DNA from: Escherichia coli
Lineage (GTDB): Bacteria > Pseudomonadota > Gammaproteobacteria > Enterobacterales > Enterobacteriaceae
Strand: one strand, 5' to 3'
Assembly: GCF_048403405.1 (NCBI RefSeq)
Contig: NZ_CP183129.1
DNA: 64,000 nucleotides
A program made the translations under genes and the position numbers. The notes under the pieces are model-generated. The model searched no databases. It saw only the letters and a program-made list of their open reading frames with translations, and had not been told where the DNA came from. Position 1 is the first letter of the stretch. Every line of letters begins with the position of its first letter. Below, piece by piece: positions 9,007 to 39,014 of the stretch.

Positions 9007-9497
9007 TCATGAGTCTTTTGAATGAAGTTCAGAAATTCATTGAAGCCCATCCGGGCTGTACTTCCGGAGACATTGCGGATGCTTTTGCAGGTTACTCACG
9101 GCAGCGCGTACTGCAGTCAGCAAGCAAGTTACGTCAGAGTGGGCGTGTGGCTCACCGTTGTGAAGGGAAAACACGCAGACATTTCCCACACCAGGCTGAG
9201 ATATCGCAGGAGGAGAAACTGCAACCTGTTCTTGAAACCATACCTGTGAGCAATTTCTATGTCGGCACTAACGACCCCTGGGTGATTTTGTGCCTGACCC
9301 GTCAGGCTGAAGAACTGGAGTCCAGGGGCTTATACCGTCGTGCTGCAACGGTGTGGATGGCGGCATTCCGTGAAAGCCACTCCCAGCCAGAACGAAACAA
9401 TTTTCTGGCGCGTCGTGAGCAGTGCTTACAGAAAAGCAGCAAGCGCGCAGCATCGGGTGAAGAGTGGTATCTGTCAGGGAATTACGTGGGGGCTTAA
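9003..9497 (+). CDS. PerC/ANR-like transcriptional regulator (tentative)
   Basis: 164 aa; segment AEELESRGLYRRAATVWMAAF resembles the PerC-family signature; recalled similarity only. Confidence 0.35.
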   Translation: MIMSLLNEVQKFIEAHPGCTSGDIADAFAGYSRQRVLQSASKLRQSGRVAHRCEGKTRRHFPHQAEISQEEKLQPVLETIPVSNFYVGTNDPWVILCLTRQAEELESRGLYRRAATVWMAAFRESHSQPERNNFLARREQCLQKSSKRAASGEEWYLSGNYVGA

Positions 9498-10150
9498 TGA
9501 GTAATAAATATTGTCAGGCACTGGTGGAACTGCGGAACAAACCAGCCCATGAACTGAAGGAAGTGGGCGATCAGTGGCGCACGCCGGACAACATTTTCTG
9601 GGGAATTAACACTCTGTTTGGCCCGTTTGTTCTGGATCTGTTTACTGACGGTGATAACGCCAAATGTGCTGCGTATTACACGGCGGAAGACAACGCGCTG
9701 GCGCATGACTGGTCAGAACGTCTTGCGGAGCTTAAAGGTGCTGCCTTTGGTAATCCCCCATACAGCCGCGCCAGTCAGCATGAGGGGCAATACATCACCG
9801 GCATGCGTTACATCATGAAACATGCCAGTGCCATGCGTGATAAGGGCGGGCGCTATGTTTTCCTGATCAAAGCTGCCACCAGCGAAGTGTGGTGGCCGGA
9901 AGATGCGGACCATATTGCTTTTATTCGCGGGCGTATTGGTTTTGAACTGCCTGCCTGGTTTATCCCGAAAGACGAAAAGCAGGTGCCAACAGGTGCTTTC
10001 TTCGCTGGTGCTATTGCTGTTTTCGACAAGACCTGGAAGGGAGCGGCAATCAGCTACATCGGGCGCGATGAACTTGAGGCATGTGGTGAGGCATTTCTGG
10101 CGCAGGTTCGCCAGCAGGCGGAAAAACTGGTCAGGGAGATGGTGGCATGA
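9497..10150 (+). CDS. Phage N6-adenine DNA methyltransferase (Dam-like, NPPY motif)
   Basis: ATG at 9497 overlaps previous stop; 217 aa; FGNPPY catalytic motif. Confidence 0.7.
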   Translation: MSNKYCQALVELRNKPAHELKEVGDQWRTPDNIFWGINTLFGPFVLDLFTDGDNAKCAAYYTAEDNALAHDWSERLAELKGAAFGNPPYSRASQHEGQYITGMRYIMKHASAMRDKGGRYVFLIKAATSEVWWPEDADHIAFIRGRIGFELPAWFIPKDEKQVPTGAFFAGAIAVFDKTWKGAAISYIGRDELEACGEAFLAQVRQQAEKLVREMVA

Positions 10151-10536
10151 AGCTAATACTGCCTTTTCCGCCCAGCGTGAACACCTACTGGCGACACCCC
10201 AACAAAGGGGCATTTGCTGGTAAGAGCCTGATAAGCGCGGCGGGGCGAAAATTCCAGAGTGCGGCGTGCACAGCAATAGTTGAGCAGTTACGTCGTCTGC
10301 CGAAACCAACGTCGGCACCTGCTTCAGTGGAGATCGTGTTGTTTCCTCCGGATAACCGGATCCGCGATCTGGACAACTATAACAAGGCGCTGTTTGACGC
10401 CCTGACCCACGCGGGTGTGTGGGAAGACGACAGCCAGGTGAAAAGAATGCTGGTGGAGTGGGGACCAGTTATCCCGGAAGGGAAGGTCGAGATCACTATC
10501 AGTAAGTACGAGAAAACGGCGGGTGCAGCCGCCTGA
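10147..10536 (+). CDS. rusA: RusA Holliday-junction resolvase
   Basis: 129 aa; RDLDN and LPFPPSVN motifs. Confidence 0.8.
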   Translation: MKLILPFPPSVNTYWRHPNKGAFAGKSLISAAGRKFQSAACTAIVEQLRRLPKPTSAPASVEIVLFPPDNRIRDLDNYNKALFDALTHAGVWEDDSQVKRMLVEWGPVIPEGKVEITISKYEKTAGAAA

Positions 10537-10555
10537 TTAAGAGGAGAAACGAAGT

Positions 10556-11365
10556 ATGAATAATCTGATGGTCATTGATGGTATTGAAGTTCGTCGTGAT
10601 GCTTATGGGCGTTACAGCCTGAACGATCTGCATCGCGCAGCAGTAGCATCTGGTGCAAATGCCAGAACCAAGGAGCCAGGAAAGTTTCTTTCCAGCCAAC
10701 AAACTGTTGAGCTTGTTCATGAATTGACCAACACCCAGAATTTGGGGGTTGACCCGGTGAGTGTGATTCATGGGGGAAATGAACGGGGAACGTATGTCTG
10801 CAAGGAACTGGTGTATGCCTATGCAATGTGGATCAGTCCATCATTCCATCTGAAGGTGATCCGTACTTTTGACATGGTAACCAGCGCACCGGATAAATTA
10901 TCCGGACAGGCTGCTGACAAGATGCAGGCTGGTGTGATTCTGCTGGACTTTATGCGCCGGGAATTAAACCTGTCTAACTCTTCAGTGCTTGGTGCCTGTC
11001 AGAAACTCCAGGAGGCTGTTGGCTTACCGAATCTGGCACCGCGCTATGCCATTGATGCTCCTGCCGATGCACCCGATGGCTCAAGTCGCCCCACGCTGTC
11101 GCTAAGTGCACTGCTGAAACAGTATGGTATCCGCCTGACGGCTAATCAGGCATATCACCAGATGGTGAAGCTGGGGATCGTCGAGCAGCGCGAACGATAC
11201 AGCCGTACCGCGATTAACAACATCAAAAAATTCTGGTCGCTGACGGCGAAAGGCTGCATGTTCGGCAAGAACATCACCAGTCCTGCAAATCCGCGCGAGA
11301 CGCAGCCGCACTTCTTCGAATCCCGATTCCCTGAGCTGTTAAAGCTGCTCGATACCGTTCATTGA
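10556..11365 (+). CDS. KilA-N domain protein
   Basis: 269 aa; N-terminal GIEVRR...LNDL KilA-N-like segment. Confidence 0.5.
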   Translation: MNNLMVIDGIEVRRDAYGRYSLNDLHRAAVASGANARTKEPGKFLSSQQTVELVHELTNTQNLGVDPVSVIHGGNERGTYVCKELVYAYAMWISPSFHLKVIRTFDMVTSAPDKLSGQAADKMQAGVILLDFMRRELNLSNSSVLGACQKLQEAVGLPNLAPRYAIDAPADAPDGSSRPTLSLSALLKQYGIRLTANQAYHQMVKLGIVEQRERYSRTAINNIKKFWSLTAKGCMFGKNITSPANPRETQPHFFESRFPELLKLLDTVH

Positions 11366-11366
11366 G

Positions 11367-37600: not shown

Positions 37601-37707
37601 CCGTTGCGATTGGTTCACATGGACACACCATCACCGTTAACGCTGCGGGTAACGCGGAAAACACCGTCAAAAACATCGCATTTAACTATATTGTGAGGCT
37701 TGCATAA
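34681..37707 (+). CDS. Side tail fibre protein with Ala/Ser/Thr low-complexity repeat and C-terminal His-rich repeats
   Basis: 1008 aa; GAHTHS repeat motifs near C-terminus. Confidence 0.8.
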
Positions 37708-38291
37708 TGGCATTCAGAATGAGTGAACAAGCACGGACCATAAAAATTTATAATCTGCTGGCCGGAACTAATGAATTTATTGGTGAAGGTGACGCATATA
37801 TTCCGCCTCATACAGGTCTGCCAGCAAACAGTACCGATATTGCACCACCAGATATTCCTGCTGGCTTTGTGGCTGTTTTCAACAGTGATGAGGCATCGTG
37901 GCATCTCGTTGAAGACCATCGGGGGAAAACGGTTTATGACGTAGCGTCAGGGGACGAGTTATTTATTTCTGAACTCGGTCCGTTACCGGAAAATGTTACC
38001 TGGTTATCGCCGGAAGGGGAGTTTCAGAAGTGGAACGGCACAGCCTGGGTGAAGGATACGGAAGCAGAAAAACTGTTCCGGATCCGGGAGGCGGAAGAAA
38101 CAAAAAACAACCTGATGCAGGTAGCCAGTGAGCATATTGCGCCGCTTCAGGATGCTGCAGATCTGGAAATTGCAACGGAGGAAGAAACCTCATTGCTGGA
38201 AGCCTGGAAAAAGTATCGGGTGTTGCTGAACCGTGTTGATACATCAACTGCACCTGATATTGAGTGGCCTACGAACCCTGTCAGGGAGTAA
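37707..38291 (+). CDS. Tail fibre assembly protein (Tfa)
   Basis: 194 aa, directly after fibre gene. Confidence 0.8.
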
Positions 38292-38342
38292 TCATTGGGA
38301 TTATGCCGCAGCACGTCTTAAGCAAGAACGTGCTGCGGTTGG
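38127..38342 (+). repeat. Direct repeat copy 1 (tfa 3' end plus terminator hairpin)
   Basis: About 216 bp, roughly 90 percent identical by eye to 39175-39391. Confidence 0.7.
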
Positions 38343-38356
38343 ATGCTATTTTTTCC
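38316..38356 (+). terminator. Hairpin terminator after tfa
   Basis: 10-bp stem ccgcagcacg/cgtgctgcgg then T-rich tract. Confidence 0.5.
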
Positions 38357-39014
38357 CTGAAGCGGAAAACATTACTACAGTACCTTGAACCTTGGTTTTA
38401 ACATTCTCGAAATGCTCTGAGAGTATATGTGTTAAGCCTTCTTCGGAATCTTTTGTGTTTGAAAAGATGCCTTTCTGATTGTAAATGCGCATCAGTTTTT
38501 GACCGAAGCTATTGTGCACAACTCCATCGCCAAGAATTGTGGCTCCGTATAGAGTTCCATCGTCAGTTAAGGCCTGCGCCGCATTGCGTATTACACAGCT
38601 TTTTGTAGATATATTTCCAGGCAGGCAGTGAAGAAGGTAAAACATGGAAATGGAATCAAATTGACCATGTAACGCCGCGGGATAAGGTTCAAAAACATCA
38701 TGGCTAATTTTATGTTTAATTTTTGATTCCCCAGCCCTTGTAGATGCCGCGTTCAGGCTAGCTTCGTTCAAATCCATTAAAGATATCAGACTACTCTCAG
38801 GTACGTGAGTAAGGTAAAACCCAGTTCCAACACCAATATCCAGATGGTTGTTACCTACATGTTCCAGAAAGTGTGGAAGAAGGTGTTCCTTTGTAGGACA
38901 TCCCCATGCAAGCCGATTTGATACTCCCAAAACCCACCAGTCATAAAGCTTTAGGGTAAGTGGTGTGTAAATTTTAGCCCCATCATCTGTGTTTTTTTTC
39001 ATTGATTTCACCAT
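38346..39014 (-). CDS. Class I SAM-dependent methyltransferase (moron, substrate unknown)
   Basis: 222 aa; motif I LDIGVGTG; AT-rich relative to flanks; opposite strand to tail genes. Confidence 0.7.
   Translation of the reverse strand: MVKSMKKNTDDGAKIYTPLTLKLYDWWVLGVSNRLAWGCPTKEHLLPHFLEHVGNNHLDIGVGTGFYLTHVPESSLISLMDLNEASLNAASTRAGESKIKHKISHDVFEPYPAALHGQFDSISMFYLLHCLPGNISTKSCVIRNAAQALTDDGTLYGATILGDGVVHNSFGQKLMRIYNQKGIFSNTKDSEEGLTHILSEHFENVKTKVQGTVVMFSASGKK

Follow-up and report, generated by a model that had tools for sequence, protein, structure and literature searches.

Three methyltransferase-related genes in separate modules of one mosaic lambdoid prophage of Escherichia coli

A 64,000-nucleotide (nt) stretch of the Escherichia coli contig NZ_CP183129.1 (RefSeq assembly GCF_048403405.1; henceforth the window) contains three methyltransferase-related genes, all held by one lambdoid prophage integrated at yecE/yecD: an intact gene for a Dam-like N6-adenine methylase, the remnant of a second adenine methylase gene downstream of the antiterminator gene Q, and an intact counterpart of the K-12 gene ybcY, which encodes an S-adenosylmethionine (SAM)-dependent methyltransferase. 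A preliminary description of this DNA, whose coordinates for the three genes agree with ours to within about 20 nt, had taken them as a sign that modification functions were repeatedly gained and lost here, plausibly under restriction or defence pressure. Do the three genes share such a history, or did they merely end up in the same prophage? We consider it probable, taking this view jointly with the steps of the working model proposed below, that each is independent cargo, carried in a module of its own within one mosaic lambdoid prophage, and that they do not form a linked modification system. All three genes are already known, being annotated in RefSeq and having K-12 or characterised counterparts.

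The first gene had been read as an intact N6-adenine methylase with an NPPY motif, a reading borne out by profile searches and by the motif itself. Specifically, the protein matched Pfam Dam (PF05869; E=5e-45, 153 bits against a cut-off of 28) and the NCBIfam model TIGR01712 (phage_N6A_met; 254 bits against a cut-off of 97, profile positions 1-165 of 165), and its catalytic motif IV is NPPY at residues 86-89. RefSeq lists the identical sequence as ‘phage N-6-adenine-methyltransferase’ (WP_021530864), and the Dam protein of Shigella phage SfV shares 99.1% amino-acid identity with it over all 217 residues; a sequence search of the PDB returned no match. The start codon overlaps the stop codon of a PerC-family gene (TAATG) and the stop codon overlaps the start of a RusA gene (ATGA), which makes the Dam-like gene a member of the early-right operon, whose place is between the replication genes and Q. 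It is an orphan: its neighbours are the PerC-family and RusA genes, and neither side has an endonuclease gene. The K-12 prophage CPS-53 likewise has a Dam-like orphan in its early-right region next to a PerC (yfdN-like) gene, but there the copy, yfdM, is truncated.

The nearest enzyme with a traceable specificity is M.EcoVT2Dam (orf32 of VT2-Sakai; 175 amino acids), whose target is given as GATC (PMC6602927, Table 3) and which belongs to the same Pfam family yet is only 31% identical to the Dam-like protein. By analogy with it, the target is probably GATC. Kinship with the non-specific methylases Hia5 and Hin1523 was also considered as a reason to regard the Dam-like gene as encoding a non-specific enzyme, and was dropped, as those two are relatives of the alpha-class Dam/DpnM/T4 Dam group (PMC3299994).

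If the target is indeed GATC, the host already methylates it, and the phage copy would mainly add capacity during rapid replication. Such an enzyme could serve phage physiology instead of anti-restriction, whether through methylation-dependent packaging (as reported for P1 Dam and pac cleavage) or gene control, or by avoiding MutH nicking of under-methylated, replicating DNA. The ratio of observed to expected GATC sites, 0.83 in the prophage (1-39950) and 1.06 in the flanking chromosome (40000-64000), is in line with this explanation, as are the GATC-free regions reported in prophages (PMC6602927). By contrast, phages of this type have no known methylation-dependent site, and the gene is dispensable, given that it is missing from many close relatives and truncated in K-12. 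We therefore regard a role in phage physiology as unlikely, if still worth keeping in view, and retain anti-restriction as a plausible role of the Dam-like enzyme.

The second gene had been described as a C-terminal methylase remnant after Q. This description stands, except that homology begins at position 12893 and not at 12915; it ends at the stop codon at 13189. The remnant matched only profile positions 134-220 of the 221 in Pfam N6_N4_Mtase (PF01555), i.e., the C-terminal third, and is a pseudogene in RefSeq (‘site-specific DNA-methyltransferase, missing N-terminus’). We found that its family can be specified: 85 of 95 aligned positions (89%) are identical between the remnant and residues 255-348 of M.EcoGII, and the intact protein of phage Stx2a_WGPS2 is 93% identical to M.EcoGII over 348 residues (both values use the M.EcoGII sequence of Supplementary Table S1 in PMC11551740, machine-read from a PDF and containing a few reading errors). 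M.EcoGII is the non-specific adenine methylase of O104:H4 (PMC5778455). The remnant is 96% identical to the Stx2a_WGPS2 allele and has kept the SAM-binding motif FxGxG (motif I) as FMGSG at residues 56-60. A regular-expression scan found no (D/N/S)PP(Y/F/W) in it: the N-terminal DPPY is absent and the central target recognition domain of the M.EcoGII family is deleted. Because both are gone, the remnant should be unable to methylate and is predicted to be catalytically dead.

How was the rest of the gene lost? A tblastn search of phage genomes found full-length relatives of 352 amino acids each in Stx2a_WGPS2 (gp29), phiP27 (L24) and phage 1720a-02, the last of which Murray et al. name as the carrier of an enzyme very similar to M.EcoGII (PMC5778455). 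In Shiga toxin 2 (Stx2)-converting phages these relatives sit just upstream of the ileZ-argN-argO tRNA genes and stx2. The remnant occupies the same place, after the leader and terminator on the Q side and before a tRNA trio which synteny identifies as that same cluster; the window differs in having retained only 98 of the 352 codons and in having no stx genes after the tRNAs. Positions 12776-12890 align to the leader of Stx2a_WGPS2 and phiP27, whereupon the alignment jumps to methylase codon 255. One deletion of ~1.17 kb therefore accounts for the loss, having taken the first 254 methylase codons together with a winged-helix open reading frame (ORF) of 65 amino acids.

We then counted each gene in 5426 complete E. 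coli genomes. The exact deletion junction (window 12836-12950) occurred in 82 of them, about the same number as carry the whole early-right block at 9000-14000 (88 genomes). Compared with the intact allele, the remnant has 13 synonymous and 4 non-synonymous codon differences, with no stop codon and no frameshift. The remnant thus appears to stem from a single truncation of fairly recent date, carried along with one module, which fits neither progressive decay nor the ‘repeated’ loss proposed earlier.

The counterpart of the co-deleted ORF in Stx2a_WGPS2 is gp28 (L005:391-588), a 65-amino-acid ORF with weak TrmB/winged helix-turn-helix matches that follows the leader terminator and precedes the intact gene of the M.EcoGII type. 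We found no description of a gp28-type ORF, which could be a controller of the methylase.

The third gene had been described as a moron, located after the tail fibre genes, that encodes an unrelated class I SAM methyltransferase, and both Pfam and RefSeq agree. The protein had weak but consistent matches to class I SAM-methyltransferase families (Methyltransf_12/23/25/11), matched phrog_2132 (‘unknown function’; E=4e-157) and is annotated in RefSeq as ‘class I SAM-dependent methyltransferase’ (WP_000240999). It combines a Rossmann-type fold with a GxGxG SAM-binding motif. Its AlphaFold2 model (predicted local distance difference test score of 91) consists of a bare Rossmann core with an N-terminal helical lid, and its fold matches were the small-molecule and lipid methyltransferases PmtA, JHAMT, NodS, PMT, Coq5, BelI and DhpI, none of the matches being a DNA amino-methyltransferase. 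Since the sequence has no PP dipeptide, it lacks motif IV, (D/N/S)PP(Y/F/W), and it has no target recognition domain either. The gene is therefore outside the DNA-modification functions, and its modelled fold points to a product that most likely acts on a small molecule or lipid in the lysogen. A PDB sequence search gave only weak UbiG/JHAMT matches. CpaM, RquA and PmtA were tried as NCBIfam identities and rejected; scores of 16-18 bits against cut-offs of 175-390 support no assignment.

An alternative is that YbcY methylates nucleic acid (tRNA/rRNA or DNA), in the service of counter-defence or of translation tuning. There are matches that would support this, though they are no better than those to dozens of small-molecule enzymes. 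The protein (218-222 amino acids) has no RNA-binding extension, and a PADLOC search found no significant match (only mad2, E=0.009). The homologues in Enterobacter, Salmonella, Yersinia and Aeromonas (56-65% identity) stand alone in the chromosome: no neighbouring gene is conserved, and the surroundings show neither a phage nor a restriction-modification context. A nucleic-acid substrate thus seems improbable to us, and we keep to a small molecule or lipid.

The ybcY homologue has several features of a moron: it has a predicted promoter of its own, it lies on the minus strand among plus-strand tail genes, its G+C content is atypical (0.39-0.42 against ~0.50 in the flanks) and it sits between modules. 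In this it resembles the lambdoid morons lom, bor and sodC, which are likewise independently promoted, of lower G+C and placed on the opposite strand among late or tail genes near the prophage end. It differs from them in that its product is a cytoplasmic-type methyltransferase and not a surface or secreted virulence factor. The hexamers of the promoter-like element, found by reading the sequence directly upstream of the gene, recur in Shimada 2014 (PMC3946193), which lists them as a constitutive, H-NS-bound RpoD promoter of ybcY. The -10 hexamer TATAAC (39020-39015) abuts the annotated ATG (39014), and alignments of homologues begin at an internal methionine (ATG at 39002); for these two reasons the true start is probably at 39002, which yields 218 amino acids and makes the annotation 4 codons too long. 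The mRNA may then be nearly leaderless. A simple scan found no terminator for the gene. YbcY might be a lysogenic-conversion enzyme, i.e., one that methylates a host metabolite or envelope lipid and so alters host physiology or phage susceptibility; we put this forward as a tentative possibility that falls well short of an even prospect. A full-text literature search on ybcY found no functional study.

Was the SAM methyltransferase gained by this prophage, as the preliminary description implied? Window positions 37853-39317 are 96.9% identical to the tfaD-ybcY-tfaX cassette of the K-12 prophage DLP12, which speaks against such a gain. K-12 ybcY (b0562) has 99% nucleotide identity to the window gene and the same orientation, flanking tfa repeat and promoter hexamers. 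It is a pseudogene only by virtue of a 2-bp deletion in an A-run at gene positions 14-15 (L016:3001-3667; its reading frame is otherwise uninterrupted and differs from that of the window at 5 positions), whereas the window copy is intact. The tfa-ybcY-tfa' cassette thus appears to be an old, shared tail module that predates this prophage. The gene is bracketed by two copies of a 231-nt direct repeat that are 90% identical, have a spacing of 1049 nt and derive from the 3' end of tfa. An Rfam match to IS009 (38050-38248, plus strand, 225 bits) overlaps the 3' end of tfa, its 38115-38248 part lying within the left repeat.

We next asked whether the presence of all three genes in one prophage calls for a common cause. 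Dam-like DNA was found in 2119 genomes (39%; 1724 with at least 80% coverage), M.EcoGII-family DNA in 2027 (37%; intact gene in 1917) and ybcY DNA at no less than 98% identity in 3831 (71%). Because the families are individually this frequent, the meeting of the three genes needs no special explanation and is not beyond chance expectation in a mosaic prophage. These results can be set against the proposal that all three genes are DNA-modification functions repeatedly gained and lost by the prophage under restriction or defence pressure. It is true that two of the genes fall into families of DNA adenine methyltransferases, that the M.EcoGII-family gene is intact, truncated or absent among E. 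coli prophages, and that K-12 has a truncated yfdM and a frameshifted ybcY. Nevertheless, the third gene is devoid of DNA-methylase motifs and looks like one for a small-molecule methyltransferase, the observed loss is one deletion allele tied to one module, the ybcY cassette was inherited as a conserved block, and no restriction or defence gene was found adjoining any of the three. Considering this, we judge repeated gain and loss to be quite unlikely. What survives of the proposed selective pressure concerns the two DNA methylases, which plausibly have anti-restriction roles; it does not extend to the third gene.

Would comparing the methylomes of a lysogen and a cured strain help? Genes of the M.EcoGI/II type gave no signal in lysogens and were toxic when constitutively expressed (PMC5778455), the prophage methylases of ST131 are transcriptionally silent (PMC4659465), and Dam homologues are indistinguishable from host Dam (PMC6602927). 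Because prophage methylases of these kinds are reported to be silent in lysogens and host Dam would mask methylation at GATC, such a comparison would be uninformative: no prophage-dependent motif is expected whether or not the enzymes work.

Taken together, independent cargo could work as follows. Since the Dam-like gene sits in the early-right operon (PerC-Dam-RusA), it would be kept off in the lysogen and expressed once the prophage is induced. Its product would N6-methylate adenines of replicating phage DNA before packaging, and the effect would be weaker restriction in the next host and/or full methylation of DNA that is replicating fast. An intact M.EcoGII-type gene lies just after the Q-controlled leader and terminator and before ileZ-argN-argO, and would for that reason be late, Q-dependent and expressed only upon induction, with a broad anti-restriction function. 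The remnant of the window would be an inert tail of 98 codons transcribed within the late leader. YbcY, by contrast, would be expressed in the lysogen from its own sigma-70 promoter and would methylate a small molecule or lipid, and recombination between the 231-nt tfa repeats could remove its gene.

The late-leader part of this model draws on the segment between Q and the remnant, which is 89.7% identical to Stx2a_WGPS2 (L005:201-287) and 94.6% identical to phiP27 (L006:213-268) and contains an intrinsic terminator, AAACCCGCCGCGAGCGGGTTTTTT, recognised by direct reading. This segment probably corresponds to the short late-leader transcript (pR'-tR') located ahead of the methylase in intact loci. 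Short pR'-tR' transcripts of Stx phages have been reported to act as small RNAs (sRNAs), and the leader may be a transcript of this kind. Positions 12780-12852 gave a weak, sub-threshold match to an isrK-like Rfam family (18 bits, E=0.4).

Several points weigh against our model. Most generally, it is built on sequence. With only 31% identity to M.EcoVT2Dam, the GATC target is not secure. The pR'/tR' assignment is based on position, conservation and the terminator, not on a mapped promoter, and a simple scan for promoters in the interval from Q to the leader terminator returned no sigma-70 consensus site. Finally, the remnant lies within an ORF of 141 codons (12764-13189) whose translation is conceivable.

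This last point raises the alternative that the remnant is not inert, i.e., that a SAM-binding polypeptide is translated from the ORF or from an internal start, or that the DNA has a function in cis (e.g., in the processing or expression of the downstream tRNAs). The 141 open codons would allow it, as would the absence of any stop or frameshift from the 98 homologous codons, and the remnant and tRNA cluster are kept together in PhiR49_2, deposited as a complete phage genome. Against it, the ORF reads through the intrinsic terminator and its ATG lacks a Shine-Dalgarno sequence, the NCBI Prokaryotic Genome Annotation Pipeline (PGAP) calls a pseudogene, the loss of DPPY and the target recognition domain leaves no possibility of methylation, and an excess of synonymous differences is to be expected from divergence that preceded the deletion. 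We hold this to be very improbable and continue to regard the remnant as an inert tail.

The features discussed here are collected in Table 1.

Table 1. Features of the prophage region, in window coordinates
Feature	Position	Strand	Remarks
Intact orphan phage N6-adenine DNA methyltransferase gene, SfV Dam type	9497-10150	+	217 amino acids; PF05869/TIGR01712; NPPY
Antiterminator Q gene	12380-12760	+	Pfam Phage_antitermQ, E=1.6e-52; PGAP coordinates; immediately upstream of the late-leader/remnant region
Conserved leader with intrinsic terminator	12776-12861	+	Terminator AAACCCGCCGCGAGCGGGTTTTTT at about 12829-12853
Deletion junction	12890-12893		~1.17 kb missing relative to Stx2a_WGPS2 (L005 ~330-1500)
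Remnant, last 98 codons of an M.EcoGII-family beta-class N6-adenine methyltransferase gene	12893-13189	+	FMGSG kept; DPPY and target recognition domain gone
Three tRNA genes (ileZ-type CAU, Arg-TCG, Arg-TCT)	13230-13479	+	
Full-length tail fibre assembly gene tfa	37707-38291	+	Pfam Caudo_TAP, E=1.9e-44; 3' end is the left direct-repeat copy
Left copy of the 231-nt direct repeat bracketing the ybcY homologue	38115-38345	+	
Class I SAM-dependent methyltransferase gene, intact ybcY counterpart	38346-39014	-	phrog_2132; 222 amino acids as annotated
Promoter-like element TTGATT-17-TATAAC	39015-39043	-	Directly upstream of the ybcY homologue; sequence reading
Right copy of the 231-nt direct repeat	39164-39394	+	With tfaX-like C-terminal tfa remnant (PGAP pseudogene, 39164-39340)
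DinI-like gene	39456-39704		Followed by yecD and aspS

As to the prophage as a whole, window positions 1-26000 share 100% identity with E. coli strain ECO_2_R, and in that strain int/xis and yecE (DUF72) are found immediately upstream of this segment; hence ~3 kb of the prophage precede the window. The prophage stops near 39,960, ahead of yecD and aspS. The integration site yecE is a known site for Stx phages, and the prophage carries the Stx-phage-type Q-(methylase)-ileZ-argN-argO module; the interval from the tRNAs to the holin gene is free of stx genes. The tail-fibre segment is mosaic, and other strains match it better than ECO_2_R does. Identity to ECO_2_R is 100% up to 26000 and again from 38171, with the mosaic part spanning 26000-38170. 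Within it, 34490-38170 (the long tail fibre gene and full tfa) did not align to the tail-fibre locus of ECO_2_R, which has a truncated fibre gene and a different spike gene. Strain 09-02E matched the window over 33152-42711 with 97.6% identity overall and 99.6% over 37600-40000.

Searches against Rfam gave further matches. A full-length match to the sRNA STnc100 (13556-13755, plus strand; 133 bits against a gathering score of 47) lies between the tRNA cluster with its terminator and the holin gene, i.e., in the place of stx in Stx phages. Two above-threshold matches on the plus strand, isrK (7265-7341, 68.6 bits) and C4 antisense RNA (7366-7453, 82 bits), both fall within the 5' part of an annotated Rha-family coding sequence (7211-8068). 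This pair suggests an antirepressor control module similar to c4/ant of P1, with the start of the coding sequence possibly mis-set. Outside the prophage, the Hfq-binding sRNA STnc490 had a full-length match in the host chromosome part (52813-52936, minus strand, 146 bits), and ~125 bp between aspS and nudB (42715-42839), absent from ECO_2_R and 09-02E, contain a central imperfect inverted repeat; this element presumably resembles enterobacterial repetitive intergenic consensus sequences or intergenic repeat units (ERIC/IRU).

The locus carries little weight as a discovery, and the value of the analysis lies in its corrections to the earlier reading. What had been called a decayed methylase can now be specified as a gene for a non-specific adenine methylase of the M.EcoGII type, apparently dead and lost through one deletion, and the third gene is corrected to one with no DNA-modification function. 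Of most interest here are the substrate and role of YbcY, the product of a very widespread and highly conserved prophage cargo gene. Should YbcY prove to be a lysogenic-conversion enzyme, the least-discussed gene of the three would be the only one with new biology.

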